From: an uncultured Lishizhenia sp.
Lineage (GTDB): Bacteria > Bacteroidota > Bacteroidia > Flavobacteriales_D > Crocinitomicaceae
DNA length: 64,000 bases
Assembly: GCA_964540625.1 (NCBI GenBank)
Contig: CAZINO010000001.1
Span: 3,448-67,447 of the forward strand
Reading direction: 5' to 3'
Below, piece after piece: positions 35,018 to 61,565 of this stretch. Position 1 is the stretch's first letter. Every line of letters starts with the position of its first letter. A program made the position numbers and the translations under genes. Below the pieces are notes generated by a model. The model was given only the letters and a program-made list of their open reading frames with translations. It had not been told where the DNA came from and did no database searches.

Positions 35018-35065
35018 CCTCGCTAAGTTAAGCATTTCGACTAATTTTGTAAGAAGCAATTTGAC

Positions 35066-46310: not shown

Positions 46311-46380
46311 AAAAGTCAATTTTTTGGCAAAATTCACTTTTTTCTGTCATTTGGTTTTATTTATATGTTTTATGATGAAC

Positions 46381-46408
46381 ATAAAAAAAGCCATCCGAAG
46401 ATGGCTTT
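46381..46408 (-). terminator. Intrinsic terminator with cUUCGg tetraloop; left copy of a 29-nt identical direct repeat (46380-46408)
   Basis: Minus-strand RNA AAAGCCAUC-UUCG-GAUGGCUUU followed by U7. Identical in sequence to 61537-61565. Confidence 0.85.
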
Positions 46409-46415
46409 GGGAATT

Positions 46416-47639
46416 TTAATTTTTGATGAAGGGGTAGGGTTGGTTTTTTAAGTATAAGTTGTATTGGCCTGAGGCCAATCCATCAATTAGGATTACAGCT
46501 TTTAAGCCTGACTCAAATCCTTTCATGATACATTTTCCTGCCAAATCATAAATTTCATAACCTTCTATAGACCTATCTGAAATTACATGCAATTTACTAG
46601 CAGTAGGATTTGGATAGATCTCTAATTTCAACATTGAGGCCTCTTCTAATCCAATGGTTGAAATATTCGCAACAGCAGAATTCTGACAGCCGTTGTCTGC
46701 CGTAACAGTTAGCATCACCGGATAGGTATCCGCACCAGGAAAATTATGAGTTGGATTGGGTACAGTTGAAGAGGTACCATCGCCAAAATCCCAGGAATAA
46801 GTGGTGATGATACCGCCAGAAAATGTAGAGGTATTGGTAAAGATATACTCTGTTTGCGAAGAACCTTGAACAGTTGTAAAACTGGCAATAGGGCCTTCCA
46901 TAATTTCAATCGGAAGCGTTTGAGTATAAGTGCAACCATCAACGGTGTTTACTTCAAGTGTAACGACATAATTTCCAGCACTGGCATAATGCGTAGAGTC
47001 TGACTGCATGTTTGAGGTAGCACCATTACCAAAATCCCAGTTATAATTACTGATTTGCTTACCGGAATACAAAGAATCATAAGTAAATGTGATTTCGTTG
47101 TTTGTGCAAGTGGGTAAAGGGCTCGTCACTTGTATGGGCGCAGGAACTGGCGCAGTGAACTTATAGCTACTCACAATTCCGTCAAATAAAGTAGTCACAT
47201 TCGAAAAGTCTTGGCTATTGATTAAATTACATGCTGAAGAAAGCTGAAATGTAAGTTTAACCACTGGAATATTGATTGGGATATTAAAAGTTATAGAGGT
47301 ACCTGAGGACGTATTGCTTAGGTAAAAATTGGCTTGGTTAAAATTACTGAATGCATCTAAACCTGTAACCAATGAGGTGGTAGAAACATAGGTAAGTTCT
47401 GTTTGATTGAATTGAAACCAAAAATCAAAGGAGTTGATATTTGGGTTGCTTGATTTGAGTAGGACTGGTATTTCTATATAATTTGAACCCGCATTACTGT
47501 AATAATTGGCATTTAATATATCAAAGACAATTGTGTCGTTGAGGGCTTTATTTGATTGCGCAATAATTGGTTTAGAGGCTTGACCAAAAACATGGGCACT
47601 CATAAAAATAGCTGCTGCAAGTGATAAAATATTTTTCAT
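46416..47639 (-). CDS. Secreted protein: cohesin-like module + 2 PKD domains + T9SS type A sorting domain
   Basis: PKD motifs NWDFGNGATS...AGNYVVTLEVNTVDGC and SWDFGDGTSS...ADTYPVMLTVTADNGC. CTD LEIYPNPTASKLHV...GQYNLYLK. N-terminal module YIEIPVLLKSSNPNINSFDFWFQFNQTELTYVS. Confidence 0.8.
   Translation of the reverse strand: MKNILSLAAAIFMSAHVFGQASKPIIAQSNKALNDTIVFDILNANYYSNAGSNYIEIPVLLKSSNPNINSFDFWFQFNQTELTYVSTTSLVTGLDAFSNFNQANFYLSNTSSGTSITFNIPINIPVVKLTFQLSSACNLINSQDFSNVTTLFDGIVSSYKFTAPVPAPIQVTSPLPTCTNNEITFTYDSLYSGKQISNYNWDFGNGATSNMQSDSTHYASAGNYVVTLEVNTVDGCTYTQTLPIEIMEGPIASFTTVQGSSQTEYIFTNTSTFSGGIITTYSWDFGDGTSSTVPNPTHNFPGADTYPVMLTVTADNGCQNSAVANISTIGLEEASMLKLEIYPNPTASKLHVISDRSIEGYEIYDLAGKCIMKGFESGLKAVILIDGLASGQYNLYLKNQPYPFIKN
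47160..47540 (-). other. Cohesin-like module of the 407-aa protein (aa about 34-160)
   Basis: Pattern x-[IV]-x-IPV-x(8-12)-[IV]-x-x-[FY]-D-F-x-[FL]-x-[FY]-[DN]-x(3)-L, as in type I cohesins. By-eye call only. Confidence 0.4.
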
Positions 47640-47714: not shown

Positions 47715-50700
47715 TTAATCAATAATAACCTTCTTCATTGTGCTGAAGTTTGCATTTTGTACGCGCACAAAATAAACTCCTGCATTTACGTTTGGAAGGG
47801 TAATTGCTAATTTACCTGAAGCTGGGATTTGACCAACTTCAGCAATTAAGCGGCCGTTCATGTCACAAACCGATACAGATGCACCTTCAACAGATTCAAC
47901 AGAGAATGTACCGTTGTTCGGGTTAGGATAAACTTGAACGTTCAACACATGTTGGATGGCTTCTGAAGATTTTGCAAACTTCATATCTACTGGCTTACCA
48001 TTCAAGATAGCAAGTTCAGTTTGGAAGTTTTTCTCAGATAATTGACCGTTTTCAGTGGTAACGATAAGTTCAGCTACATTGGCACCAGTTGCAAAGTTTG
48101 AAACATTGAAACCAGAGAAACGCAATGTCTGGTCAGCGTTGTTCATGAATGCAGTTGCCTCTGCAGTTTGGTCTAAAGACGCAACCTCTGAGTAGTTTGC
48201 ATTGTTGAATTTCACTGCAAAGTCTAAAGCATTTACTTGCTCAGTAGCTTCAAAAGAAACCGGGATGCGGAAAGTATTACCTTCTTGTTGAGCAGCAGTG
48301 AGGTCAAGAACAACAGCGCCTTCTGACTTCAACAATCCATCTGCAGTGTAGGTTGCATAGCTTGCGTTTACATCACCTAACATGATACCATAGTAAGTCT
48401 CTGTTTGGATTTCAGGACATGTTGCATAGTTACTCACGTTTGCAGCAATGCTGAAAGGAACGACTGGAACTTTTGCCTTCGAATACCCTACGTTATCGTT
48501 CGCTGGGAAAGTAGCTGAAATTTGGTAGGCAGCGTTACTTGTAGCTGTTGTTTTATCAACAAAGATCCAGTCTTTCGAAGGATGACCATTAGACACCCCA
48601 GCTGCAGAATAGTTCCAAGCCTGACGATACTCGGGAATAGCCAAAGTTGCACGTTGCTTGATTTGAGAAATATCACCAGCAGAAACAACACCATCTAGGT
48701 TGACATCAAGTGCAATGATCTGGTACACGTTTGGTGTAAAGCTACCATTCAACAACAATGTTTTGCCTAGAACGGCATCGGCAGCATTCACCAGCAACTG
48801 TACTGAGTTATTGTTAGAAATGTCACGAGAAATATTCAATTTCTGACCGTTGGTAAGTACGTGTGTAAATACGCCAGTAGTATTTGGCTGAACAGCTGTA
48901 GCAGAAATAAATGTAACTGGTGTTGCACTTAACGCAGCTGTTGTGGCAGTTGATAAGGTAACGGTAGTTCCTGAAATACTAGCCACAGTAGCGGTTGAAG
49001 GAACACCGTCGGCAACAACTTTCATACCAGCAACAACACCCGTAACAGTATTTGGAATAGTTAATGCAGTAGATGCAGAAGTAGCAGTTCCTGTTGTTGT
49101 AACGGCACCGTTAACGTTAGTAATCAAGAATGCGTTCGGGTTAGACGCGTTATACTTTATAGCTTGGTTATCAGACCAGAACAATAACGTGGCCGGGTAA
49201 TTCTGATCTTTGATAGAATACGCTTTGCCTGAATTAGCTGTTTTATTCAAAACTCCTGTAATGTAACTTTCTTGGATAGAAGAAATTGCAACAGTTGCTG
49301 AATCTAAACCTGCGAAAGCACTTGTTTTGGTAAACTGAACCGTGAAGATATCGGCGTTGGTTCCATTGAACTCAGCATTAGCTGGCGCATTACCGTTGAA
49401 GTTCAAAGAAATTTGCATGGTGCCGTTACTACCACTTGGTGTACCGATTGCAGTTGCGGTTTCAATATGCGAAGCATTTGAATAAAGTGTATTAGCTACA
49501 AATACATTTCCTGTAGGAGTCAATTTGGAAGCATCGTACGTAAGCGAAATGTCATAACCAATTACATTATCAACAGTGTATGTATTCGAAACGGCAACTG
49601 GCATTAAGTAGACCGTTTGATCACAGTTTTGAGTAACGTTTTTCACTTTGTATGGAAGCGCGTTCGGGTCAGCGATATCCAAAGTCACAGCAGCTGAAGT
49701 TGCTGTTGCTTGGAAGTTATCTGTTGCAATGGCAGTAAAAGTTTTGACACCTGGTGTGCTTGTCCAAGCATAAGACCAAGTATTACCAGATGTATTTGTA
49801 CCAGCTCCAACCAAGGTGCCGTTGACGTAGAAATTCACACCACTAATACCATCCACGTCTGTGGCTGTGGCCGTAATTGTAATTACTGTAGGGGCAGAAA
49901 TCAATTGGCTAGCTGTAGGATTTGTGAGTGTAACCGTTGGAGGGGTGTTTGCAATCACGTTCATAGAGGTTGTTGCAAAAGAACCTGTTAATCCAAGATT
50001 GTCTGTCGCTTTTGCTTGAACTGAATACGTACCATTCACGTTAGAAGGAACCGCATACGTTTTAGAATATGTACTACCTGAAAGCGTACCGTTACCGATT
50101 GACACAGAGTTAACAAAGAACTCAACAGATGCAACTGTACCATCGACGTCGTTAGCTGAACATGTAAAAGTAACGTTAGAACCTAGATAAGCTGTTGCCG
50201 GGGCAGTTAAGCTAGAAACGGTAGGCGCTTGGTTAGCCGCAACTGTAAAGTTATGGGCTGTAGATGTTGTAGTAGCACAATCATTGTCTGTTGCTTTGGC
50301 TGTAATCGCATGCGCACCATTTACAGAAGCAGTGTAAGAATAAGTGTAAGTTGAACCCGTGTTTGTAACTGTACCAGTTAATAACACACCATTATCATAG
50401 AATTCAACACCAGTAATAGTTCCGTTGTCGTTAGCAGTTGCGGTAAATGTCATTGACGTTCCTGTAATGATACCAGAAGTTGATGGCGATGAAGCCAAAG
50501 TAATTGTAGGAGGTGTATTTGCAACAAGCGTTAATGTTGAATGTGTGAAGTTTGTACTTCCACTTGGTGGATTAGAAGCATAATAGTTTTCAACAGCACC
50601 AGAGGTAGCATTTTGGATTTGAACATTTAATGCAAAGCTCAACTGACCAGTTGTTGTAAATTGGCCTATCAATACCATATTTGAAGATGTAGCACCAGTA

Positions 50701-51338
50701 ATACCACCTAAAACGGCCAAGGCACCATCAGTAATCGTTATTGAACCACTCGTTGAAGCATCTAATGCCGCAATACTTCCGAAACCACCTAAGCCATTTG
50801 TGGAAATGTTCGGAGACACAGGTAAATAACCATCTTGTGCACCAGATCCTTTAATTGGTAGACCAAAACATCCACCAGGGTTGTTGGTTAACAAACCATT
50901 TGATTGCGTAAAAACTGATCCATCAGTATCTTGAGACTTCAATACGCCTACTTTGCCAGTTTGTGTCATTCCCATGGTAAACCAAGAATCTAAAGAAGAA
51001 TGCGTATTTGCATTATTTCCTGATGAAAGTGTTGGTGTTGTTTGTACTGAGTTCGAAGGGTGATTGTAAAAACCTGTGGTAGAGTTTACAGTAAGAGAAT
51101 TACCAGGTACTGCAAAGATTTGATTTAACTTCCAACCAGCATTCATGTCAACAAATACGCGATAGGTAACAGAAGAAGTGGTAAGTGGAACCGCCGCACC
51201 TGTCTCTTGGCCAGCTACGTCAGCAGAATTAGCTTGATAGTATTTTTCAACTACTATGCCTTGTAACCCAACTTGCGAAAACGCTGTGCCTGCAAGCAGA
51301 AAAAAGCATAAATTTGTAAGTAAACGAAGTGTTTTCAT
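47715..51338 (-). CDS. 1207-aa surface protein: VEKYY domain + 3 Ig-like repeats + cohesin-like module + dockerin-like loop + second cohesin-like module + T9SS type A sorting domain
   Basis: Signal peptide, then the N-terminal domain shared with ORFs at 55114, 59523 and 60614. Repeats PPT[IV]TL...A.A.D.DG.I..VEF[YF]..G. IGYDISLTYDASKLTPTG. DVNLDGVVSAGD. CTD VYPNPNNGTFSV...AGVYFVRV. Confidence 0.85.
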   Translation of the reverse strand: MKTLRLLTNLCFFLLAGTAFSQVGLQGIVVEKYYQANSADVAGQETGAAVPLTTSSVTYRVFVDMNAGWKLNQIFAVPGNSLTVNSTTGFYNHPSNSVQTTPTLSSGNNANTHSSLDSWFTMGMTQTGKVGVLKSQDTDGSVFTQSNGLLTNNPGGCFGLPIKGSGAQDGYLPVSPNISTNGLGGFGSIAALDASTSGSITITDGALAVLGGITGATSSNMVLIGQFTTTGQLSFALNVQIQNATSGAVENYYASNPPSGSTNFTHSTLTLVANTPPTITLASSPSTSGIITGTSMTFTATANDNGTITGVEFYDNGVLLTGTVTNTGSTYTYSYTASVNGAHAITAKATDNDCATTTSTAHNFTVAANQAPTVSSLTAPATAYLGSNVTFTCSANDVDGTVASVEFFVNSVSIGNGTLSGSTYSKTYAVPSNVNGTYSVQAKATDNLGLTGSFATTSMNVIANTPPTVTLTNPTASQLISAPTVITITATATDVDGISGVNFYVNGTLVGAGTNTSGNTWSYAWTSTPGVKTFTAIATDNFQATATSAAVTLDIADPNALPYKVKNVTQNCDQTVYLMPVAVSNTYTVDNVIGYDISLTYDASKLTPTGNVFVANTLYSNASHIETATAIGTPSGSNGTMQISLNFNGNAPANAEFNGTNADIFTVQFTKTSAFAGLDSATVAISSIQESYITGVLNKTANSGKAYSIKDQNYPATLLFWSDNQAIKYNASNPNAFLITNVNGAVTTTGTATSASTALTIPNTVTGVVAGMKVVADGVPSTATVASISGTTVTLSTATTAALSATPVTFISATAVQPNTTGVFTHVLTNGQKLNISRDISNNNSVQLLVNAADAVLGKTLLLNGSFTPNVYQIIALDVNLDGVVSAGDISQIKQRATLAIPEYRQAWNYSAAGVSNGHPSKDWIFVDKTTATSNAAYQISATFPANDNVGYSKAKVPVVPFSIAANVSNYATCPEIQTETYYGIMLGDVNASYATYTADGLLKSEGAVVLDLTAAQQEGNTFRIPVSFEATEQVNALDFAVKFNNANYSEVASLDQTAEATAFMNNADQTLRFSGFNVSNFATGANVAELIVTTENGQLSEKNFQTELAILNGKPVDMKFAKSSEAIQHVLNVQVYPNPNNGTFSVESVEGASVSVCDMNGRLIAEVGQIPASGKLAITLPNVNAGVYFVRVQNANFSTMKKVIID
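47964..48326 (-). other. Cohesin-like module 2 of the 1207-aa protein (aa about 1005-1125)
   Basis: TFRIPVSFEATEQVNALDFAVKFNNANYSEVAS...QTLRFSGFNVS...NVAELIVTT. By-eye similarity to cohesin strand order. Confidence 0.4.
48648..48707 (-). other. Single dockerin/EF-hand-like Ca-binding loop plus helix in the 1207-aa protein (aa 878-897)
   Basis: DVNLDGVVSAGDISQIKQRA fits D-x-N-x-D-G-x(5)-D followed by an amphipathic helix. Confidence 0.45.
49203..49661 (-). other. Cohesin-like module 1 of the 1207-aa protein (aa about 560-712)
   Basis: VYLMPVAVSNTYTVDNVIGYDISLTYDASKLTPTG...GTMQISLNF...DIFTVQFTKTS parallels VEIPVYF...IANCDFVFRYDPNVLEIIG...IIVFLF...VFAKIRATVKS of clostridial type I cohesins (recalled from memory). 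Confidence 0.45.
49674..50516 (-). repeat. Three tandem Ig-like (bacterial Ig, about 92 aa) protein repeats in the 1207-aa protein
   Basis: Each copy reads PPT[IV]xL...F[TS]A.A.D.[ND]G.I..VEF[YF].NG...G......Y.Y......G.[HY].[IV].A.ATDN. Confidence 0.6.
50523..51272 (-). other. VEKYY domain, copy 4 (1207-aa protein, aa 23-272)
   Basis: GLQGIVVEKYY..VTYRVFVDM..GFYNHP..LDSWFTMG..GVLKSQDTDGS..ITDGALAVLGG..VLIGQFTTTGQLSFALNVQIQ. Confidence 0.7.
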
Positions 51339-51353
51339 AATATTTTGTTTTTA

Positions 51354-51398
51354 AAAAGAAGCGCCCACCGAAAAAGATGAAAAGAACAGTGGGCGCTT
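51354..51398 (-). terminator. Hairpin between the 727-aa and 1207-aa genes (terminator or attenuator)
   Basis: 10-bp stem aagcgcccac (51359-51368) / gtgggcgctt (51389-51398) with a 20-nt loop, followed on the minus-strand RNA by CUUUUU. It lies only 20 nt upstream of ATG 51338. Confidence 0.55.
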
Positions 51399-51422
51399 TG
51401 CCTTTATATTTAGGACTTATTA

Positions 51423-53606
51423 TTAATTACAGCTTGTACCGAATGCAGGAGCAAAGATCAAGAAGTCTGCTGTGTTGGTAGTACCATCACCATTCAAGTC
51501 TGTAGGGCAAGCCTGAACACCAGTTGTTGAACCAAGTATTTGTGAGTAAGACCAATCAGACAACCAATTATCACCAGCTACTGAAGAAAACGCACCACGG
51601 TAATTAGCTGGCTCAAAGAAACCATCCATTGGCGCTTGTGAACAACCAGAGCCTAGCGTAAGTGCAGGATTTGGTACTACATCGTTCTTTTGAGTTACTG
51701 CATTGGTTCCACCATTGATTGTAAAATCATAATTGAAGCCAGGCAATGTGTTACCTGTTACAATTACATTTCCGTCTGCACCGAACTGGGTTGTTGAAGC
51801 AGCAGGCGTAACAACTGAAGTTGTTGCGGCAAGCGATGACGCGCCAATTACGAATGGATTCGCCATTCCAATAAAGTGATTACATTTTACAATTAAGCTA
51901 GGTGTAGGTGTAGAACCAATTCCTTCAAGGGCAGCCAATGATGAACCAGACTGCGGTATAGTAGACCAATACTGAAAAGAGTTACCTTGACCTGCTGCAC
52001 CACGGTTAGTTAAAGAATTCTCTAAATTCAAACCATTTTTAAAATTCGCAAAAACAGAATTTGCAATTGTACCTTGTGCAGCTTCTTTCATGTTAATGGC
52101 AGCCAAACCACGGTTATCAGCAGAACCTGTAGCTTTAGCATTCCCCATAATTGTCGCATTGTAAATTTTTGGGTTGGACTTTAATGCAGCATTCGAAGTG
52201 TTGTCATCAGAATCACACTCAAAGCCATTATCGTTATCGAAAGAAATAGCATTCGTTTCTGTAGAAGATCCTGCCTGCTGCGCTTTCATTCCAAATAGAA
52301 ACTGTGCACGTCCTGACCAACCTAGATCGTAGTCATACATATCATCGTTACCGAAAAGCGTCGTGCAGTATTTGAGGTCAACAGTACCACCAAAAAGCTC
52401 GATATTATCATCGGCACAAGAAACAATCTCGATGTGCTCAATTTTAGTACCACGACCTACAGATGCAAGCGTTAAACCGTTGATCTCAGAACCAACAAGA
52501 AGGTTTGCACCAGAGTGGCGAATCGAAACATAAGTCATGACACCTGAGTTATCATTATCATTAAATGTAGCTGTTGAAGTATAATATGCACCTACATAGG
52601 ATGCGACAGACCCACTAGTTCCTGATACAGGAGCAGAACCAGAATTAGGTGCTACGTAAGTGATAGAAGTGAAGTAACCTGTTTGGCCACCATTTGGATA
52701 TGTTCCGTCAAAGGTGATTTCTGCACCAGCAGCAATTGCACCTGTAAGAGCAGCGGACAAGGTTAATTGCTTTGCTGAAATACTCAAAATGGTGGTACCT
52801 GCAGGAATACCTGAACCGGACACAGCCTGACCTTGAACAACATAACCAGGAGCATTACTTGCCAATTCGATTTTTGTATTACCTATTCCATTGCATCCAG
52901 AGGCCGGAGTAGCAGATGTTGCCAATAGTCCAAATGTATATGCACCTGAAGGCGAGGTAGCTTGAACTGTTCCTGATGGAACATTAAGAGCCACACCAAA
53001 CTGATCTTGTGGATAAGAAGAAGCAAAGCCTTCTAATACACCTAATCCGTCTGCAATAGCCATTTTACCACCTTGTCCCGGAATGAATGGACCATTTGCA
53101 GCAAGTGTTAAATTGTTTGATGCTGTACCGCAAATCAAGATACCACCCCACTTACCTTTATTTGCAACTCCATAAGAACCATTCAATGGATCTGCTGCTG
53201 CTGTAAATACAATTGGGCAATCTTCAACCCCAGGAGCGATAATTTTACCACCTCTTTCAATGATCAAGGCGCGAGCTGCAGCAACATTTGTCCCTGCATC
53301 AGAGGCTTTAATTACTGTGCCAGGTTCAATCGTAATTGTGGCACCAGAACCGATATATAGCTTTTCATCAAGAGTCCAAATTGTACCACATGTTAAAGTT
53401 ACATTTCCAGAAGTCAATTCTTTACCGTAAGCAGCTGCGGGAAGATTGGTCCAAGATCCTACTGAAGTGATCGAAGCAGAAGGCCTTGAAGAAACCGTCG
53501 GACAGCCACAGGCGGCACCTAAGTTTTGTTGAGCAAACAAGGAGTTGCTCATTGTGGCTAATCCGAGCATGGAAAATAAGCCAACAAGTAAATTTCTTTT
53601 TTTCAT
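51423..53606 (-). CDS. 727-aa secreted beta-helix-like protein with a Cys-bracketed dockerin-like C-terminus and no T9SS CTD
   Basis: Signal peptide. Gly/Thr/Asn-rich repetitive beta pattern with HIEIVSCADDNIELFGGTVDLKYC...GNDDMYDYDLGWSG. Near the C-terminus ANYRGAF...NWLSDW. Terminal ACPTDLNGDGTTNTADFLIFAPAFGTSCN. Confidence 0.8.
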   Translation of the reverse strand: MKKRNLLVGLFSMLGLATMSNSLFAQQNLGAACGCPTVSSRPSASITSVGSWTNLPAAAYGKELTSGNVTLTCGTIWTLDEKLYIGSGATITIEPGTVIKASDAGTNVAAARALIIERGGKIIAPGVEDCPIVFTAAADPLNGSYGVANKGKWGGILICGTASNNLTLAANGPFIPGQGGKMAIADGLGVLEGFASSYPQDQFGVALNVPSGTVQATSPSGAYTFGLLATSATPASGCNGIGNTKIELASNAPGYVVQGQAVSGSGIPAGTTILSISAKQLTLSAALTGAIAAGAEITFDGTYPNGGQTGYFTSITYVAPNSGSAPVSGTSGSVASYVGAYYTSTATFNDNDNSGVMTYVSIRHSGANLLVGSEINGLTLASVGRGTKIEHIEIVSCADDNIELFGGTVDLKYCTTLFGNDDMYDYDLGWSGRAQFLFGMKAQQAGSSTETNAISFDNDNGFECDSDDNTSNAALKSNPKIYNATIMGNAKATGSADNRGLAAINMKEAAQGTIANSVFANFKNGLNLENSLTNRGAAGQGNSFQYWSTIPQSGSSLAALEGIGSTPTPSLIVKCNHFIGMANPFVIGASSLAATTSVVTPAASTTQFGADGNVIVTGNTLPGFNYDFTINGGTNAVTQKNDVVPNPALTLGSGCSQAPMDGFFEPANYRGAFSSVAGDNWLSDWSYSQILGSTTGVQACPTDLNGDGTTNTADFLIFAPAFGTSCN
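51426..51509 (-). other. C-terminal dockerin-like module C-x2-D-x-N-x-D-G-x5-D-F-L-x-F-x(6-7)-C (aa 700-727)
   Basis: CPTDLNGDGTTNTADFLIFAPAFGTSCN is a 12-residue EF-hand-type loop plus helix enclosed by two Cys. I recall the same layout in C-terminal 'GC-type dockerin' anchors of other phyla. Confidence 0.5.
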
Positions 53607-53642
53607 TTTTAAATGTTTTTAGTTGATGTAAAATTAGACCAC

Positions 53643-53669
53643 AAAAAAAAGTTGGCTGTGAAGCCAACT
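53643..53669 (-). terminator. Intrinsic terminator ending the six-gene operon
   Basis: 8-bp stem agttggct (53650-53657) / agccaact (53662-53669), 4-nt loop, followed on the minus-strand RNA by U8 (A-run 53643-53650). Confidence 0.8.
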
Positions 53670-53752
53670 TTATCTGTTTAAAAAGTTTGATGTCTATTTG
53701 AATTTGCTCAGGATTAAGCCAATGTTAGTATCAACAATTTGAGTCTTTAATT

Positions 53753-54409
53753 TTAAAAATTATAGAGCACGGCGGTCTGGAAAGCCAGTTGATATGGGCG
53801 TTGTGGCACATTACTTGCGCCTAGAGAGTTCAGAGAATAGCTTAACATTAAACTTGGCTTGATGCTCCATTTGAGCGTGACTGGTAGCTGGGCACCCAAA
53901 TGAACAGCCGCACTGAATTGCCAAGTTGTATTTGGTGTGTATGCCGTTGTCTGCACTTCATTCCAACCCTCTTGCAGAATATAAGACATCTGGCTACCGA
54001 TTAGTTTGGATGACAGCACAGAAAAACCTACGAATGGCTGCCAAGTTTCGGTTATTACATTGTATTCCATTCCTAAAGGTATACTCATATAATTCAAAAT
54101 ATGCTGATAAGTATTGATACCAGGCAGACTATTTGCTAGAAAATTATAACGGCAATTCTGAAAGCGTAAACCACCCACAAATGTCAATTCTCTGGTCAAA
54201 CGACGCGCATATGTCAGGCCAAGTTCTTGAGCCATACCGCCGGTTTGTAAACTATCCATGATGCGGTTGAAACCAGGATTTTCCGTAGATTTCTGGTAAC
54301 TCATGGCTGTATAACCCAATTGATAAAAAGCACCAATTTGATTTTTTTCTTGCACCTGTGCAAAAGCGATAGTGCCTAAGAAAACGAAGAATAAGAGTAG
54401 CTTTTTCAT
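53753..54409 (-). CDS. Small outer-membrane beta-barrel (porin-family-like) protein
   Basis: Signal peptide (IAFAQ), alternating beta-strand pattern, C-terminal aromatic residue (...AVLYNF). 218 aa. Confidence 0.6.
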   Translation of the reverse strand: MKKLLLFFVFLGTIAFAQVQEKNQIGAFYQLGYTAMSYQKSTENPGFNRIMDSLQTGGMAQELGLTYARRLTRELTFVGGLRFQNCRYNFLANSLPGINTYQHILNYMSIPLGMEYNVITETWQPFVGFSVLSSKLIGSQMSYILQEGWNEVQTTAYTPNTTWQFSAAVHLGAQLPVTLKWSIKPSLMLSYSLNSLGASNVPQRPYQLAFQTAVLYNF

Positions 54410-54412
54410 GAT

Positions 54413-55117
54413 TTAATTTTTGACGCAACGGATACTCATGCCATAACGCTGATCTGCAAATTGTCTGAAAATTTGAGTGCGTTGGTGGCTGATTGAACGA
54501 TAAATAGCTTTGTTTGGCTGCTGAGTCGCCGTCCAAAAATAAGCTTCTAAACCATTTGCTGAAATTTGGCCATTGTATAAAACAACACCACCCGGATTGA
54601 TATTCAAAGCGTATTTGTTATTTCCAAAATGAATGCTGGCTGTTGGCCAGTTGTTCGAATTCTGGGGTAGAATTCCATTAACCTCATCTTGCCCGCGCCA
54701 AGCCATTAAGTCTGTTTCAGCACTATCCATACCGATAGAACGCTCTAGTTTTTTCCAATCTTCGTCGGTTGCAATATGCCAACCTTCGGGGGCTAACCCT
54801 CTGGGGTCAAGTACGGTTGCATAATTATAAAGTTGACCATAAAGGCTATCTGCAATAGTTTTGTACCCTGGACCTGCTTGCCAACCAGTTGTATCATTTG
54901 TTGCAAAAAAAGGGATTAAAGTACCATCGTTAAAACGCGTTGTTTTGAGATTCTCGCACATCCACCATTGGTCATTTATTTTAACCGTTTGATAGGAATT
55001 ACCATCAATATCCGTAACTGTACCATATTCCAATACGATTTCTTTGGGTGTATCTTTGTTGCACGAGACCAAGCCAACAAGACCTAAAAAAATAAGTACG
55101 ACGATTGAATTTTTCAT
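54413..55117 (-). CDS. Lipoprotein with Fibrobacter succinogenes major paralogous domain (TIGR02145-like)
   Basis: Lipobox LVSC. DIDGNSYQTVKINDQWWMCENLKTTRFNDG...YGQLYNYATV...APEGWHIATDEDWKKLE...FWTAT...SIRCVKN. Confidence 0.8.
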   Translation of the reverse strand: MKNSIVVLIFLGLVGLVSCNKDTPKEIVLEYGTVTDIDGNSYQTVKINDQWWMCENLKTTRFNDGTLIPFFATNDTTGWQAGPGYKTIADSLYGQLYNYATVLDPRGLAPEGWHIATDEDWKKLERSIGMDSAETDLMAWRGQDEVNGILPQNSNNWPTASIHFGNNKYALNINPGGVVLYNGQISANGLEAYFWTATQQPNKAIYRSISHQRTQIFRQFADQRYGMSIRCVKN

Positions 55118-56448
55118 TTTGTCTTGATAAGAATTTCTGATTTTGTGAGCTCACCAACTGTAAAGTCAAGGAAATACACGCCTGCTTCTTGTTCAGCCAG
55201 GCCCATATTTATCTCTAAATTATTTTCTGTAGCCATACTTGTGTCTGTTGCCAAAACAACACCGAAAGCATTATATAATTTCCAAGAAATTTGTTGTCCT
55301 TCAAAATTACCGTTGGCTACAAGTTGTGTCTCGCCGTCAGTAGGATTCGGCACCATCTTGATTTCAAAGTTACTCTGCCATAATTCTGGGCAAACTACAG
55401 CAATATCTCTTCCACCGCAAGCCCCAGGGTAACAACAAAGCCCCGGAACATTGATGTTTACAGATGGGTCATAGTTACAAGCATTGGTGTCCATACAACC
55501 CATTACAACCGGTGTGATACATGCGCCATCAAGTAGACAGGCAAATGCTGGGCTAAATTCTAGATAATTTGGATCGGTACACCCACACTGAAATGGATAG
55601 CTTAAAAATGGGCTGAATACTTCGTTTGCAGCAAGTAAGGTATCTTTAGCTACATACTTCAAAGTACTTGGCGTCCCATTTGTATTTACTTCTACTTCGA
55701 TATTTAATTCAAAAGATAGTTCTCCTGCTGTTGTGAGTTGAGCAATAAGAACCTGATTCTCTTGTGGATCAACACCTGTTACACCACTATTTTGCATTAA
55801 AAACTCCTCGGAGTTGAATGAAGTTCCGCTGGTTACTGATCCGAAAATTGTATTGTCTTGACCTGTGGCAATGTCTACTAGACCAACTGTAAGCCAATTA
55901 CTTGGTACATTTACCATTGTATCCATTCCATCGGCAGTCGGTAATGAAATCCCTAATTGCGTGTCTGAATTATTAAGTAGCCCTGAAGCAATACCCGCGC
56001 TCCCACCATCGTTATTTGTACCGCCGATAAAAGAACCATCGGTATCAGCAACTTTAGGAATCCCAAAATATGTTTTTCCAGCTTGCGTTTTTGTAGTTTG
56101 GCCGAGAGTCATCCAGGTATCCAAAGCTACCAAGCCTTCACTGTAACGGTTTTTTAAAAACTCTTTGGCATATGTTTGTCCATCAGTTGCATGATTATAA
56201 AAAGGTGCGGTGCTTTCGAATACAACTGGATGTCCAGTACTGCCATAGACAGATTTCAAACGCGTGTTCGGCAATAAATCAATGTAGATCCTGTAAGTAG
56301 TGGTTCCAGCTTGAATTGTTCCTCCAGTAACATCTGTGGCGTCATTAGCATCTGTTATATAATATTTTTCAACGATAACCTTTTCCAATTGCGCCTTTAA
56401 AAGTGAAAAGCTACAAATGGCAATCAATGTGTAAAGTATTTTATTCAT
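55114..56448 (-). CDS. 444-aa secreted protein: VEKYY domain + Cys-rich linker + T9SS type A sorting domain
   Basis: LEKVIVEKYY..TTYRIYIDL..PFYNHA..LDTWMTLG..ADTDGS..VLIAQLTTAGELSFELNIEV. 10 Cys in aa 288-353. CTD MVPNPTDGETQL...AGVYFLDF. Confidence 0.8.
   Translation of the reverse strand: MNKILYTLIAICSFSLLKAQLEKVIVEKYYITDANDATDVTGGTIQAGTTTYRIYIDLLPNTRLKSVYGSTGHPVVFESTAPFYNHATDGQTYAKEFLKNRYSEGLVALDTWMTLGQTTKTQAGKTYFGIPKVADTDGSFIGGTNNDGGSAGIASGLLNNSDTQLGISLPTADGMDTMVNVPSNWLTVGLVDIATGQDNTIFGSVTSGTSFNSEEFLMQNSGVTGVDPQENQVLIAQLTTAGELSFELNIEVEVNTNGTPSTLKYVAKDTLLAANEVFSPFLSYPFQCGCTDPNYLEFSPAFACLLDGACITPVVMGCMDTNACNYDPSVNINVPGLCCYPGACGGRDIAVVCPELWQSNFEIKMVPNPTDGETQLVANGNFEGQQISWKLYNAFGVVLATDTSMATENNLEINMGLAEQEAGVYFLDFTVGELTKSEILIKTK
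55390..55587 (-). other. Cys-rich linker with two copies of a GC[TM]D-x(2-3)-[AY]-x-NY/-like motif
   Basis: QCGCTDPNYLEFSPAFACLLDGACITPVVMGCMDTNACNYDPSVNINVPGLCCYPGACGGRDIAVVC. Confidence 0.5.
55594..56388 (-). other. VEKYY domain, copy 3 (444-aa protein, aa 21-285)
   Basis: See the alignment blocks listed in findings. Confidence 0.7.
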
Positions 56449-59400
56449 TATTGAATTTTATAAGAGAAACCAAATTGGAAAGTAGTTCCATAACGGAAGC
56501 GGTCAAAATCAACATAAGAGCCGTCCGAAAGTTGATATGCCCTGCGAACAGGTGCATTAAGTATATCTCTCACAGTTAAGCTCATGGCGTAATGTTTGCC
56601 AAGTGTTTTTGAAACTTTAAAATCAACAGTATGGCGAGGCATTTCGTATACATTGGCAAAGCCTTTTAAAATACCGGCAATTACCAAGCGTGGGCCTTGA
56701 ACATTGTATGAAACAGTTGCTGTGAGGCCAAGTGAATCTGAATTATAGCTTAGAATTCCATTGACAATGTATGGCGCTTGCCCAAACATGGTGCGCACTA
56801 CAGTATCAACGGGGAAATACTCAATTTGATTATTATTCAAGATGATAAAGTCCTTTCTAACAAACTGAGATTGCGACTTAACAACCGTCACATTAGACCT
56901 AAACTCCAGGTGCTTACCAAAATTTTTACCGACCTCAAATTCTAGTCCAGCTACGTATGAATTCTCGTTGTTGTCCCAGGTGATACCTGAGCTACCAAAA
57001 CCCATTTCAATGTGGTTCAAGAAGGTCTTGTAAAAAGCACTGACAGAGAAATTGTCTTTATTTGCAAAGTATGACTCATAACGCAAGTCGTAATTGGTAA
57101 TGTTGGTCAGCTTCAAGTTAGAATTCCCATAAATTAAAGTACGGAATTCATTGTCATATACAGCCGCATCGTTCATTTCGCGAATGTTTGGGCGTGCTAC
57201 ACTTTTGCTGTAATTCAAACGCAAATTGGTGATGGTATTCTTTTCGGATTGAAACTTAAAAATCATACTTCCCGACGGCAAGAAAGACCATTCATCTAAA
57301 ATCCCCGGATTGATGATTGGGTAGCCCGGTACACTCACCCTTCGGCCGTCATTGCGCTCATAACCGAGCACATGGTATTTATATACATCTGAAAAAAGTG
57401 CAACGTGCTCAGCGCGTAAACCGCCATTGAAGCGAATGATTTTATTGAACTCAAAATCCAAAAGGCCATATGCTGCAGTAATGGCATTGGTACCAATGGT
57501 GTGGTTCCAATCCCAATTGCGAGGATCGTAATAATAATTGAGGAAGCCGTTTTGCATGACCATTTGGTTCGTATCCAAAAATGCATCCAAATCTTCATTT
57601 TGAAGTGTGGTCGGAATCGCATTACCAGCCATCAAAAAGTACTCCTCCATTTTAGAGTTACGGTCGGTACTTTGAAAAGCACCACCAAATTTGAGCTTTC
57701 GGATCAGCTTCACGCTGTCAGCAGCTAATGGCACTTCGAGTGATAATCGAGAATCAAAAAGGTTTTCATCTAAATAGCGGTTATAGCGGCGTATGCCATC
57801 GCCTGCATTCGGAGAAAACTGGTAACTACCTATGAGTTCATTAAATGAGGAGAATGCAACATATTCTGTCAACTTAAAATCTGGCACGACGCTAGAACCG
57901 TCGGTGTAAGAAGCATTAGCATCTATTTTGATACGCAACCTCGGAACATAGTGCTGAGAGGCATATTGGTAAATGCGCTGCTGACGCTGCTCATAAAAAA
58001 TATTCTTTCTTACACTCAACTCTTCATTGGATTCTCCGATGGGTTGAGTCATAAATGAAGCCACATCATTCGTCCCTGAAACATTTGGCATGAGAAGTAA
58101 TGAAAACTTATTGTTGTCATTGATTTTATAGGCCAAATTCAACAACATGCTCCACGAATTTATCTCGCGACTCATGAGTGCATCATCGGTAAACAAGATT
58201 TGATAGTCGAGGTCTTCCGGACCAATTCTTTGAGAAATTCCATTAGGGTCGAATCGCACACTGTTTCCGTATCTAAAACCAAAGATGTAGCCCAAGGGCT
58301 TCCCAAGGAAATCTACTTGGTTACCGATACTGAAACTTTGCGTGAAATTGATGGGCGCTCTTCTAAACTTTGTGTTCCAAGAATTGGAAAAACCATTATT
58401 ATAACTTGTGCCATTGGGATTGATGAGCGACCAGGCCTGCGGCTTCAACGTTGAATTGAAGGTGGTAAGGGCAGCCAAAACAGCCGTTGGGTCATTAACT
58501 TGCGACGGATTAAGCAGTCCCAACTCAACCATACCCAATGCCATGTAGGTTTGGTTTTCATTACTCGCATCTTGCCATCCTGTCACACCTAAATTGGCAT
58601 AAAATTCGCCTAAACCTAGTGCAACCATTGTTTGGTAATTGCTTGGACTTAGATTTGGTTTGGCAAAATTGATACCATCATTGAAACCTCTAAAACCGTT
58701 GTCAAAGCCTAACCAGTCTGTGCCGCTTCTGTCAGAAGTAATGAAATCCTTGAAAGTAGACTGCACGTTGTAACCAAACTGAGACTCCACATTCACCATC
58801 AATTTATCCGGATAATCTTTAGTCTCGACTGAAATATAAGCCCCGGCCCAATCGCCAGGTAAATCTGGGGCTTGTGTTTTGGAGATTACTATATTATCAA
58901 TTAATGCCGTAGGGAAAATGTCTAACTTGATGTTATTAGTCAGTGGGTCTAGCGTTGGAATGCGTGAACCATTGAAATTGGTGCGAATGTAGCGGTCTCC
59001 AATACCACGCACGGTAATCATACCGCCGTTGGTAGAAACACCAGAAACCCTAGCTACAGCATTGGTAACGTTGGCATCGCCGGTTTTCTTCATGGTTTCG
59101 CTCGAAATGTAGTCAATCGAAACAGGTGAACTCACCTTCACGCGCTCCATATAATAGTCATTTGCTTTGGTGGCTTTACGCGTTACGGTGGTTCCTTTTA
59201 CTTCTTGAATTTTTTCGCGTTCTTTCATAGTGAAGTCTTGGACCACGACTTCATTATTTTGAAGTTGTAATACTTTGGATAGTGTATCATAACCTAAAAG
59301 TGTGATGCGCAATTGATGCGGTTTGGCATCTGGGAACTTCAAGGAATAAAGGCCATCCATGTCGGTTTTACCAAGAAATCCGGAGGTATCAGAAAGAATT

Positions 59401-59519
59401 ACTTTGGCTCCGTTTACTGGCTCACCATTGACATCAACCACTTTACCTCTTACCGTACCCTGAGCAAAAGAAACAACCCCTACCAAAAGGCAGATAAAAA
59501 ATAATTTGAAACGCAACAT
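56448..59519 (-). CDS. TonB-dependent receptor with N-terminal carboxypeptidase-regulatory-like domain; no adjacent SusD/RagB gene
   Basis: GTVRGKVVDVNGEPVNGAKVIL...GLYSL (CarbopepD_reg-like). Plug VSIDYISSETMKKTGDANVTNAVARVSGVS...ITVRGIGDRYIRTNFNGSRIPTLDP...LDIFPTALIDNIVISKTQAPDLPGDWAGAYISVETK. A long beta-barrel follows. 1023 aa. Confidence 0.88.
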   Translation of the reverse strand: MLRFKLFFICLLVGVVSFAQGTVRGKVVDVNGEPVNGAKVILSDTSGFLGKTDMDGLYSLKFPDAKPHQLRITLLGYDTLSKVLQLQNNEVVVQDFTMKEREKIQEVKGTTVTRKATKANDYYMERVKVSSPVSIDYISSETMKKTGDANVTNAVARVSGVSTNGGMITVRGIGDRYIRTNFNGSRIPTLDPLTNNIKLDIFPTALIDNIVISKTQAPDLPGDWAGAYISVETKDYPDKLMVNVESQFGYNVQSTFKDFITSDRSGTDWLGFDNGFRGFNDGINFAKPNLSPSNYQTMVALGLGEFYANLGVTGWQDASNENQTYMALGMVELGLLNPSQVNDPTAVLAALTTFNSTLKPQAWSLINPNGTSYNNGFSNSWNTKFRRAPINFTQSFSIGNQVDFLGKPLGYIFGFRYGNSVRFDPNGISQRIGPEDLDYQILFTDDALMSREINSWSMLLNLAYKINDNNKFSLLLMPNVSGTNDVASFMTQPIGESNEELSVRKNIFYEQRQQRIYQYASQHYVPRLRIKIDANASYTDGSSVVPDFKLTEYVAFSSFNELIGSYQFSPNAGDGIRRYNRYLDENLFDSRLSLEVPLAADSVKLIRKLKFGGAFQSTDRNSKMEEYFLMAGNAIPTTLQNEDLDAFLDTNQMVMQNGFLNYYYDPRNWDWNHTIGTNAITAAYGLLDFEFNKIIRFNGGLRAEHVALFSDVYKYHVLGYERNDGRRVSVPGYPIINPGILDEWSFLPSGSMIFKFQSEKNTITNLRLNYSKSVARPNIREMNDAAVYDNEFRTLIYGNSNLKLTNITNYDLRYESYFANKDNFSVSAFYKTFLNHIEMGFGSSGITWDNNENSYVAGLEFEVGKNFGKHLEFRSNVTVVKSQSQFVRKDFIILNNNQIEYFPVDTVVRTMFGQAPYIVNGILSYNSDSLGLTATVSYNVQGPRLVIAGILKGFANVYEMPRHTVDFKVSKTLGKHYAMSLTVRDILNAPVRRAYQLSDGSYVDFDRFRYGTTFQFGFSYKIQ

Positions 59520-59522
59520 GAA

Positions 59523-60617
59523 TTAAAGTTTGATGATTCTTTGGGTTGCTTGGCTTTTTGTACCTTTTACCTTAAGGATATAAACACCGGCAGGTAAAGT
59601 TTGAACATCCAATTTTTGACTGTTCGTCATAAATGGTACAGCCATGAGTGTTTTACCTTCAAGGTCTAACACTTCAAGTTGGTATGTGTCCATTTGTTCT
59701 TGTGTTAACCAATTTAGCTGCAATAGATCAGCCGTAGGGTTCGGAAATACAACTAGGTTATTCATTGGGTCAGGAATTAAATTTTCGTCAACACTAGCAC
59801 TAGGATTTGAGTTATAGATGAGCGTAGAATCCGTAAATTCACCAGTGCCTGGGAAATTGGCAACATACGTTTCACTGCCACCGGCAATTGGTGTTGCAAT
59901 CTGCAAATTGAGTTCAAAAGAGAAGTCACCGTCGGTCGTAAACTGCCCGAGTAAAACATGATTGGAAGGCGTTACACCTTCTACACCACCCAGCGCTGCA
60001 ATTGCGCCATCACTAATGACTATAATACCTCCAACAACTTGGTCTATTACATCCAACTCATTTGTTACGCCCAACACATTCGGGACAATTGGTGTACCAG
60101 GCATTAGACCATCTACACCGTTAGCACCCATAATTGGAGCACCCATTGCAGCCACAAAATTGGTGAGTATTCCCTGATTATTTCCAATGGTACCATCTGT
60201 GTCTTCTGATTTGAGAACACCAACCTGACCTGAGCAAACACCACCAATTGTCAAATACGAGTCGATGAGTGTGGTATTTTTCTTGGTGTTATTTAAACTT
60301 GTTCCTTGATAAACAGAAACACCGTAATTTGGGTCATTAAAAAAAGCTGTAGTTGTGTTGAACTTCAATTCATGACCAGGTAAGCCAAACATTTGAATCA
60401 CTTTATATCCGGGTAATAGATTCGCGTAAATGCGATATGTCACAGATCCGGTACGAAGCGGATAGGCAGCCAACTGGTCTACAGCGTTCATGGAATCTGC
60501 CATATCAGATACATAGTATTTTTCTACGACTATGCCTTCTAATCCTTGTTGAGCAAATGAATTGTAATTAAAACATACAGCTAAAAATGCACCAATAGTA
60601 ATTTTTATATTTTTCAT
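59523..60617 (-). CDS. 364-aa secreted protein: VEKYY domain + T9SS type A sorting domain
   Basis: GLEGIVVEKYY..VTYRIYANL..AFFNDP..IDSYLTIGG..GVLKSEDTDGT..ISDGAIAALGG..VLLGQFTTDGDFSFELNLQIA. CTD VVFPNPTADLLQL...AGVYILKV. Confidence 0.8.
   Translation of the reverse strand: MKNIKITIGAFLAVCFNYNSFAQQGLEGIVVEKYYVSDMADSMNAVDQLAAYPLRTGSVTYRIYANLLPGYKVIQMFGLPGHELKFNTTTAFFNDPNYGVSVYQGTSLNNTKKNTTLIDSYLTIGGVCSGQVGVLKSEDTDGTIGNNQGILTNFVAAMGAPIMGANGVDGLMPGTPIVPNVLGVTNELDVIDQVVGGIIVISDGAIAALGGVEGVTPSNHVLLGQFTTDGDFSFELNLQIATPIAGGSETYVANFPGTGEFTDSTLIYNSNPSASVDENLIPDPMNNLVVFPNPTADLLQLNWLTQEQMDTYQLEVLDLEGKTLMAVPFMTNSQKLDVQTLPAGVYILKVKGTKSQATQRIIKL
59808..60548 (-). other. VEKYY domain, copy 2 (364-aa protein, aa 24-270)
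   Basis: Closest paralogue of the copy in the 1207-aa protein. Confidence 0.7.
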
Positions 60618-61432
60618 TTTTTGGGTTTTTGTATAAGTGTTGGGTGGGTTAATTCCTCCGCGCTTGGGTTGGTTGCTACGTAGCGAATAGATTTACCGTC
60701 AGGCGTCCCAATTTGAATATTCAATTCATAAGAGAGCTTTCCTGCGGTGGTGAGCTGAGCAATCAATATAGCGTTCTTGTATGGTTTAGGAGCAGCTGCG
60801 CCTTTGCCCAAACACGCCCATGCGCCATCGGTAACTATAACTTCACTTTGATTAGACTCAGCAAACAAGCCTTTTAAGGGCTCATCCAATTGATAAATGG
60901 TCAACTGCGGCAAACTATCTGAACCTCGGTAAATCATACCTGGTGCATCGCGGAATGAAAATTCAGCATCACGATCTTTCGTATTTTCAAAATAACCCTT
61001 CTCCCATTCGATAACCACCGGTAACGGTTTAGTCTGGTATTTCAACGGTACAGCAAAAAATGATTCCGCGCAAGCTCCAATTGTAATCCAAGAATCTAGT
61101 ATCGTTAAGTTTTTCTTTAATGACTTATCTGGTATCACGTTTGGATGTGAATTTCCAATTCCAGGATGGTTATAAAAGTTTTTAGTACTGGTTAATCTCA
61201 ATGGATGTTCTGGCATCCCATAAACTGCCTGAAGGGTGTAGCCACTATCAAGCTCGACAAAGATGCGGTAAGTAACAAGTCCTTTTTCTTTGGCACCGCT
61301 TACGTTACTTTTCTGATAATCGTTTTTAGAAAGCGTATAATATTTTTCAACAAAAACTTCCTTCAAACCAACTTGGGCTGAAACAAAATTTGAGACAATA
61401 ACTACTAGTGTAAAAAGTACAATTCTAAGCAT
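60614..61432 (-). CDS. 272-aa secreted protein consisting only of a signal peptide and a VEKYY domain (no anchor)
   Basis: GLKEVFVEKYY..VTYRIFVEL..NFYNHP..LDSWITIG..VTDGAWACLG..ILIAQLTTAGKLSYELNIQIG. The track start at 61438 is TTG; I use ATG 61432 (MLRIVLFTLVV). Confidence 0.75.
   Translation of the reverse strand: MLRIVLFTLVVIVSNFVSAQVGLKEVFVEKYYTLSKNDYQKSNVSGAKEKGLVTYRIFVELDSGYTLQAVYGMPEHPLRLTSTKNFYNHPGIGNSHPNVIPDKSLKKNLTILDSWITIGACAESFFAVPLKYQTKPLPVVIEWEKGYFENTKDRDAEFSFRDAPGMIYRGSDSLPQLTIYQLDEPLKGLFAESNQSEVIVTDGAWACLGKGAAAPKPYKNAILIAQLTTAGKLSYELNIQIGTPDGKSIRYVATNPSAEELTHPTLIQKPKK
60635..61372 (-). other. VEKYY domain, copy 1
   Basis: Most divergent copy. The central Gly/Asp-rich segment is replaced by a Lys/Glu-rich one (KYQTKPLPVVIEWEKGYFENTKDRDAEF). 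Confidence 0.65.
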
Positions 61433-61443: not shown

Positions 61444-61537
61444 CGCACGCTAAATTTAAAGTACTTTACCGGCTTATTAAGATTAGTTTAGCAATTGGTC
61501 AATGGATTGTTAGGGCATTAAAAGTCCTATTCTGTGC

Positions 61538-61565
61538 ATAAAAAAAGCCATCCGAAGATGGCTTT
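61538..61565 (-). terminator. Intrinsic terminator of sucC with cUUCGg tetraloop; right copy of the 29-nt identical direct repeat (61537-61565)
   Basis: cataaaaaaagccatccgaagatggcttt is identical to 46380-46408. Confidence 0.85.

Follow-up and report, generated by a model that had tools for sequence, protein, structure and literature searches.

Almost all that is understood of how Bacteroidota capture nutrients at the outer membrane comes from the SusC/SusD systems of gut species. Here we describe a locus of about 15 kb in a 64,000-nt stretch of DNA from an uncultured Lishizhenia sp. (GenBank assembly GCA_964540625.1, contig CAZINO010000001.1, positions 3,448 to 67,447; the whole stretch is referred to as the window). 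Four minus-strand open reading frames (ORFs) of the locus, of 272, 364, 444 and 1207 aa, carry a common domain of about 250 aa directly after the signal peptide. This domain is termed the head. A gene for a TonB-dependent transporter (TBDT) lies among the head genes. The locus functionally resembles both SusC/SusD polysaccharide utilisation loci (PULs) and hemophore or NEAT relays, and is a member of neither.

As in SusC/SusD PULs with surface glycan-binding proteins, the transporter has an N-terminal CarboxypepD_reg extension and is encoded in a tight operon with several proteins that are probably surface-exposed and bear no enzymatic signature. A partner gene stands directly downstream of the transporter, and putative accessory binders and a possible depolymerase are found in the same locus, again as in PULs. 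Unlike PULs, the locus has no SusD: neither PF07980, PF12771 nor a related family was found in the eight locus proteins at E ≤ 0.01 in Pfam or NCBIfam. The TBDT is not SusC/RagA, as TIGR04056 was absent from the NCBIfam results, and it matches TIGR01782 in part. Its partners are type IX secretion system (T9SS) cargo with a C-terminal domain (CTD), not lipoproteins. No similarity between the heads and SusD, SusE/F or any carbohydrate-binding module (CBM) was detected, and no carbohydrate-active enzyme was recognised.

The NEAT relay (IsdH/B/A/C) and the HasA/HasR and HmuY/HmuR systems share with this locus the repetition of one binding domain in paralogues beside a transporter, and the anchoring of those paralogues at different depths, or their release, which suggests a hand-over chain. 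The likeness is one of gene organisation, by analogy: there is no similarity of sequence or fold and no sign of haem or iron regulation, and anchoring here is by T9SS CTD, not by sortase or lipid. A third comparison is with CBM or lectin domains that T9SS cargo carries in tandem, PF23759 among them, which are likewise extracellular and combined with Ig or PKD domains and a CTD, with tandem amplification; the head, too, is predicted to be beta-rich. However, the score of PF23759 on the head was insignificant, and no CBM or lectin family or structure matched. At about 250 aa the head is also about twice the size of typical CBMs, and contains an ordered loop insert of about 100 residues.

The head domain and its family

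Pairwise BLASTP comparison of the four heads gave E-values from 7e-24 to 9e-61, with identities of 28.6-43.7% over 248-273 columns. A four-way alignment contained 33 invariant columns, with 27-44% identity to the head of the 1207-aa protein. An earlier annotation made from the letters and translations (the sequence-only reading) had proposed that a single domain occurs four times with seven conserved blocks, two of them each missing from one copy. The paralogy is borne out by these values, and the blocks were recovered in the alignment as described: DTDG (block 5) is absent from the 272-aa copy only, and [TS]DGA (block 6) from the 444-aa copy only. Domain limits derived from a profile of the four heads were practically identical to those first given. 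The same profile found no fifth copy among window ORFs of at least 150 aa, taken from the first ATG, at E ≤ 10. At block 5 the 272-aa copy reads LKYQTKPLP in place of the family LK..DTDG. Since the lysine and first aspartate are mostly kept in the orthologue group of this copy, the window copy is degenerate at the DTDG block.

In all four proteins the signal peptide is followed by glutamine, and the domain starts 1-3 residues past the predicted signal-peptidase site. An N-terminal glutamine after cleavage fits the 'Q-rule' of Bacteroidota. The head lies at the mature N-terminus, and this position is general: among 211 complete relatives encoded in related loci, 202 have a head that begins no later than residue 40.

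Sequence libraries were searched for a known family. In Pfam, three of the four heads had no match at E ≤ 10, and none had a match above a curated cut-off over the head region. The sole listing was GBD_T9SS_assoc (PF23759) on one head, with E 0.042 and 14.6 bits against a cut-off of 27. NCBIfam showed no family over any of the four heads. Searches of PDB sequences with profiles of 4 and 81 sequences returned CTD chains only, and nothing over the head. The precomputed Pfam column for more than 200 relatives, which is newer than our local library because it contains PF28492, listed only CTD, Ig or DUF3244 families, none over the head. Source-database names of relatives were 'hypothetical' or 'T9SS type A sorting domain-containing'. 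No description of the domain or of the locus was found in literature on links between T9SS cargo and TonB transporters, on FISUMP function or on PF28492.

Structure prediction gave confident models and no relatives. The whole 364-aa protein was modelled by AlphaFold2 from an 81-sequence alignment with a predicted local distance difference test score (pLDDT) of 91.2 and a disordered linker at 275-280 between head and CTD. The head alone reached pLDDT 94.7 and a predicted template-modelling score of 0.91. In Foldseek, the full-length model matched solved structures through its CTD only (mirolase CTD, T9SS substrate CTDs, DUF3244). The head-only model had no match in the PDB at E ≤ 1e-3, the best being E 0.43 with template-modelling (TM) scores of at most 0.28, and nothing was found in BFVD. 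Sub-threshold listings were scattered beta-sandwich proteins, for example YcnI, cohesins and SdrC. The sequence-only reading could not place the domain in any family and had proposed hidden Markov model searches and AlphaFold2 with Foldseek as checks; none of these yielded a confident sequence or structure match to the head, and its judgement stands. The head is a genuine extracytoplasmic Bacteroidota domain family, not yet named in any of the libraries queried, and its predicted fold is apparently new.

In the head model, the predicted N-terminal strands comprise VEKYY, TYR[IV]Y and two more, and the predicted C-terminal strands comprise [TS]DGA, [GA]Q[FL]TT, SFxLN and others. From this arrangement the core would be a beta-sandwich. 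Between the two sets lies a central stretch of about 100 residues, ordered (pLDDT > 90) and poor in regular structure, that holds LDSW and K..DTDG. Conservation was counted in a set of 147 representatives, clustered at 50% identity, which together contain 166 domain copies. At least 96% conservation was found for about 15 residues that are polar or aromatic (E, Y, Y, D, Y, R, F, N, D, K, D, N, Q, T, T, N). In the N-terminal part these are E and both Y of VEKYY, a downstream D, Y-R of TYR, and F-x-N. In the central part they are D of LDSW and K and the first D of K..DTDG. In the C-terminal part, N, Q, T-T and G of N.vL..Q.TT.G and N of LN were conserved at this level. In the numbering of the 364-aa protein, invariant positions are E32, Y35, D41, R62, F92, N94, D119, N219, Q225, T227 and N237, together with the K..DTDG block. 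Such conservation points to a single defined site that all paralogues have in common. Neither Cys nor His residues form a conserved cluster in the head, and a single His is nearly invariant. The sequence-only reading had suggested, as speculation, that the domain binds Ca or glycans. Residues seen that could bear on a Ca site are the conserved K..D.DG, D and N. Calcium dependence is plausible, judged from the acidic K..DTDG block and from the frequent Ca-binding partner modules in relatives, namely TSP3, EF-hand and dockerin-like modules.

The four copies differ in what follows the head. The 1207-, 364- and 444-aa proteins each have a signal peptide and a CTD and are T9SS type A cargo. Their CTDs were supported by Pfam E 9e-13 with 48.7 and 48.9 bits (PF18962 / TIGR04183) for the 1207-aa protein, and by Pfam E 7e-13 with 49.0 and 50.3 bits for the 364-aa protein. 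For the 444-aa protein, TIGR04183 scored 29.4 bits (cut-off 23), while Pfam scored 25.3 bits, under the cut-off of 27. The modelled CTD of the 364-aa protein superposed on solved CTDs with TM 0.76-0.79. No CTD or other anchor was found on the 272-aa protein in Pfam or NCBIfam, and it is not T9SS type A cargo. These results uphold most of what had been said of the C-terminal contexts, including the CTDs on three proteins, the Cys-rich linker, the Ig domains (now assigned to Big_7) and the bare end of the 272-aa protein. The description of the 1207-aa tail as cohesin-like was not confirmed, as Pfam gave no Cohesin (PF00963) match there. A Dockerin_1 (PF00404) match in this tail was borderline, scoring 22.3 bits where the cut-off is 22.9. 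No Pfam family matched the Cys-rich linker of the 444-aa protein; its repeated GC[TM]D..A.NY-like motifs are conserved across the orthologue group of this protein.

The family is large. An exhaustive profile search found 1420 clusters at 50% identity (E ≤ 1e-3), 554 of them at E ≤ 1e-30. The 76 best loci came from Bacteroidota, mostly Flavobacteriales, Cryomorphaceae and Crocinitomicaceae; the names of isolates and samples indicate lakes, ponds and rivers as the source of most of them. Among 46 long relatives, the partner domains were Por_Secre_tail (42), Big_7 (14), TSP3_bac (6), DUF4982 (4), EF-hand (4) and PKD (3), and no recurrent enzyme domain was found. The constant head with variable anchoring first noticed in four proteins is thus a property of the family: partners vary, are mostly Por_Secre_tail, and are otherwise stalk and Ca-binding modules. 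A phage origin was considered and rejected, as viral contigs contained no relatives.

Heads are also amplified within proteins. Among the 147 best representatives, 16 carried 2-4 heads, and in three group-B proteins (group B being the orthologue group of the 364-aa copy; L047, P0233, P0234) the 2-4 heads are spaced by about 4 residues and followed by a CTD. The clearest case (L047, 413-3778) is a 1121-aa protein with four tandem heads, 57-64% identical to one another, and one CTD. It is encoded directly upstream of the transporter, replacing the usual head-only and head-plus-CTD genes. A fusion of different paralogues, of the Rosetta-stone kind, was rejected: all four heads belong to group B and their mutual identity is 57-64%, which indicates internal amplification. 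Judged from these proteins, tandem repetition of 2-4 heads would be the pattern of multivalent binding modules.

Gene order around the transporter

The sequence-only reading described the heads without their setting, a 15-kb locus centred on a transporter. In 76 related loci, which are the best matches to this window, the recurrent order was head-only, head plus CTD, TBDT, head plus Cys-rich linker plus CTD, FISUMP, (small outer-membrane protein), beta-helix protein and long head protein. Of these loci, 65 contain a TBDT, 60 the beta-helix protein and 58 FISUMP. For 57 complete TBDT genes, a head gene lay directly upstream in 54, directly downstream in 53, and on both sides in 51. The association was kept in a rearranged locus with divergent orientation (L068). 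The four head proteins fell into four orthologue groups, each with its own fixed architecture and consensus; the groups are judged to be ancient.

In the window, the first six genes of the locus have stops and starts that overlap or are 4 nt apart, and a strong terminator follows the sixth. The TBDT starts 4 nt past the stop of the 364-aa gene, and its own stop overlaps the start of the 444-aa gene. Within its 1023 aa, CarboxypepD_reg spans aa 22-107 and Plug aa 129-218, and the barrel matches TIGR01782 in part. This match scored 144.5 bits in NCBIfam, under the cut-off of 310, beside an unrelated weak match. In comparison with the PDB, likeness to a SusC homologue was seen in the N-terminal extension only. 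The TIGR01782 subfamily includes oligosaccharide importers. Coordinates of all features are collected in the table.

Features of the locus, with positions in the window (CTD, C-terminal domain of T9SS cargo; head limits from the profile of the four heads)
Feature	Position	Strand	Details
272-aa gene	60614-61432	-	length from ATG; 274 aa from upstream TTG
Head copy A	60617..61372	-	aa 21-272 of 272-aa protein
364-aa gene	59523-60617	-	
Head copy B	59799..60548	-	aa 24-273 of 364-aa protein
CTD of 364-aa protein	59529..59750	-	T9SS type A; aa 290-363, after a low-confidence linker of ~15 aa
TBDT gene, 1023 aa	56448..59519	-	
444-aa gene	55114-56448	-	
Head copy C	55582..56394	-	aa 19-289 of 444-aa protein
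Cys-rich linker of 444-aa protein	55351..55581	-	aa 290-366; GCTDPNY / CNYDP motifs
CTD of 444-aa protein	55123..55350	-	T9SS type A; aa 367-442
FISUMP (Fib_succ_major) lipoprotein, 234 aa	54413..55117	-	lipobox LVSC
218-aa protein	53753..54409	-	signal peptide, C-terminal Phe; presumed small outer-membrane beta-barrel
Terminator-like hairpin	53648..53671	-	10-bp stem and T run; closes first transcription unit (272/364/TBDT/444/FISUMP/218)
Beta-helix protein, 727 aa	51423..53606	-	signal peptide, no CTD; dockerin-like Ca loop aa 702-725
1207-aa gene	47715-51338	-	
Head copy D	50511..51272	-	aa 23-276 of 1207-aa protein
Stalk and anchor of 1207-aa protein	47721..50471	-	three Ig domains (Big_7), unassigned modules over ~590 aa, CTD
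Further parts of 1207-aa protein			borderline dockerin-like segment aa 850-896; T9SS type A CTD aa 1136-1206
407-aa protein	46416..47639	-	weakly cohesin-like N-terminus, two PKD domains, T9SS CTD
30-nt sucC terminator, upstream copy	61536..61565	.	
30-nt sucC terminator, downstream copy	46379..46408	.	

FISUMP domains have been reported as targets of diversity-generating retroelements, i.e. as ligand-binding modules (PMC11661182). The 218-aa protein matched no Pfam or NCBIfam family and was found by tblastn in 9 of the 76 related loci; similar-sized ORFs occupy its position in others, e.g. L031 and L041. Its assignment as a small outer-membrane beta-barrel is presumed from its sequence. Relatives of the 727-aa protein are annotated PF28492 (Beta_helix_4), a family absent from our local Pfam, and its C-terminus matched a dockerin chain in the PDB with E 0.008. 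In two related loci (L060, L067) a second, partial pair of transporter and beta-helix genes adjoins the locus; PF28492 proteins may be transporter-linked in general. The Cohesin match on the N-terminus of the 407-aa protein was weak (Pfam E 0.015). Together with the dockerin-like loops of the 727- and 1207-aa proteins it hints at a surface assembly of cohesin-dockerin type.

Proposed ligand capture and other explanations

The sequence-only reading had expected a ligand-binding or catalytic module. The conserved, transporter-centred locus allows a more specific hypothesis, that of nutrient capture for the TBDT. The heads would form the working end of a set of surface proteins that catch a nutrient on behalf of the transporter whose gene lies among theirs. 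Relative to the outer membrane, this one head would be presented at four different reaches: free (272 aa), on a linker of about 15 residues with a CTD (364 aa), on a Cys-rich stalk of about 80 residues with a CTD (444 aa), and on an Ig-rich stalk of about 860 residues with a CTD (1207 aa). The proteins with a CTD would be retained at the surface, and captured ligand would be handed inward to the TBDT. The FISUMP lipoprotein may serve as an additional binder and the 727-aa beta-helix protein as a possible depolymerase. The ligand would most likely be a glycan or other polymer fragment, its binding possibly Ca2+-assisted.

Capture is proposed because heads stand on both sides of the TBDT, carry no enzyme signature, occur in tandem and are borne on graded stalks. 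The partner domains of the 46 long relatives, being stalks and Ca-binding modules, also favour binding. A glycan or other polymer as ligand is suggested by weak clues, namely a barrel nearest to TIGR01782, the FISUMP partner and the beta-helix protein. In our judgement, the proposal that the head is a T9SS-delivered ligand-capture module feeding the adjacent TBDT has about an even chance of being right.

Several observations weigh against it. The many invariant charged and polar residues are equally typical of an active site. Pfam and NCBIfam revealed neither a recognised glycoside hydrolase or lyase nor a SusD, a regulator or an inner-membrane transporter at the locus, so a glycan substrate is weakly indicated. 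As it has no CTD, the 272-aa copy may be periplasmic rather than at the surface. The 76 best loci are all from uncultured Bacteroidota metagenome-assembled genomes. Because these loci are the best matches to the window, the synteny figures may fail for the most distant members of the family.

The same conserved residues suit an enzyme. In such a case the head would be catalytic and of a new kind, perhaps a lyase or hydrolase of polysaccharides that depends on Ca, or some other surface enzyme. The four paralogues would be isoenzymes at different positions that cut a polymer into pieces for import by the TBDT. Every paralogue and tandem copy keeps about 15 polar residues that are invariant, E, D, D, K, R, Y, N and Q among them, and no other recognisable enzyme is encoded at the locus. 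An N-terminal catalytic domain followed by Ig spacers and a CTD is moreover a common architecture of T9SS cargo. Against this, K..DTDG has been lost in the window 272-aa copy and the DGA block in the 444-aa copy, and 2-4 tandem heads with 4-residue linkers would be unusual for catalytic domains. The confident model resembles no solved enzyme fold; no polysaccharide lyase (beta-jelly-roll, PL7-like) was among the Foldseek or Pfam results for the head. The beta-helix protein is also a better depolymerase candidate. Catalysis by the head, the main alternative to capture, is considered unlikely. An invariant polar constellation may alternatively suggest one chemically defined ligand throughout the family, such as a metal chelate, haem, a vitamin or a phosphorylated compound, passed along a relay like those of NEAT/Isd or HasA. 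The graded series of anchors around a transporter and a locus without a depolymerase of recognised family would be in keeping with this, as would the PhoD or Pit/DUF47 genes that adjoin two related loci. However, phosphate genes adjoin 2 of 76 loci and do not recur, a search of the window with Rfam yielded no riboswitch, and no obvious shared metal-regulator box was seen upstream by eye. No NEAT (PF05031), HmuY or HasA match to the head appeared in Pfam or the Foldseek listings, and the head has one nearly invariant His where a conserved Cys/His cluster might be sought. The TBDT barrel is nearest to an oligosaccharide-type subfamily, and multivalent tandem heads suit polymers better. A small nutrient seems a distinctly unlikely ligand.

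Two further explanations detach the heads from import. The head may be an adhesin or surface-layer module for algae, particles or cells, with its linkage to the TBDT merely genomic. Ig, PKD, TSP3, MAM and cohesin/dockerin-like partners are typical of adhesins, tandem arrays occur, and the window is rich in T9SS surface proteins. However, synteny with the TBDT is extremely tight, to the point that start and stop codons overlap, and would be difficult to account for if no function were shared. The paralogue that consists of the head only is unanchored, and the head has no relatives in phage contigs, where adhesin modules often circulate. We regard adhesion as quite improbable. Alternatively, the TBDT may work outward and export the CTD-less 272-aa and 727-aa proteins, in the manner of Oar and PopC of Myxococcus. 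Oar likewise carries CarboxypepD_reg, as does the N-terminus of this TBDT, and two secreted-looking proteins of the locus are without a T9SS signal. The single precedent comes from another phylum, and the CarboxypepD_reg extension is also standard in importing transporters of SusC type. Oar-dependent secretion itself is described in PMC6434023. Export by this route would be very surprising.

If capture for the TBDT is indeed the function of the heads, the locus could be an uptake machine not recognised before. A non-SusC TBDT would be served by T9SS-delivered paralogues of a new fold in place of SusD, with a lectin-like FISUMP lipoprotein and a beta-helix protein docking beside them, and one binding site would be presented at graded distances (free, short, medium and long). 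This would amount to a second, independent 'utilisome' solution, common in abundant uncultured freshwater Flavobacteriales. We offer this wider proposal tentatively, and consider it somewhat more likely to prove wrong than right.

The family is an unnamed secreted one with no detectable structural relative, tied to another kind of TBDT in uncultured, mostly freshwater Flavobacteriales. Should the head be a substrate receptor, it would define a new binding fold and a direct link of T9SS to transporter-mediated uptake. Four soluble domains and one transporter would then offer a handle on the diet of abundant lake bacteria. At a minimum, the domain merits a family entry, which would give informative annotation to thousands of proteins now named 'hypothetical' or 'T9SS sorting domain-containing'.

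Block relocation, flanks and other window genes

The whole locus, including the 407-aa gene, lies between two identical copies of a 30-nt terminator of sucC that are 15157 nt apart. In a relative (L077) whose orthologue of the 364-aa protein is 79% identical, sucC neighbours icd, a single copy of the hairpin stands between the two genes (6180-6201), and the locus is at another site. The duplicated terminator, taken with the single copy in the relative, indicates that the locus of about 15 kb was relocated in a single block, and this marks the locus as a functional unit.

The flanks consist of housekeeping genes that differ between genomes, and no regulators or catabolic enzymes were found in them. 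Rfam at gathering thresholds gave no matches over the whole window. The 29 regions upstream of the first gene were compared by eye for an operator, without statistics, and only AT-rich TTAAT-like strings recurred. Genes for a PhoD-like phosphatase, a DUF47/PhoU-like protein and Pit lie just upstream of two related loci (L063, 954-4690; L020, 1572-3822), their identities read from N-terminal sequences without a family search. A phosphate link was dropped when tblastn over all loci showed that these genes do not recur.

Other large T9SS cargo genes are dense in the window, at 18688-22227, 22295-25294, 30977-35110 and 38597-41839. The types represented are SprB repeats with a type A CTD; LTD and CotH with a CTD; DUF7948 and PKD with CHU_C (type B); and fn3-like domains with CHU_C.

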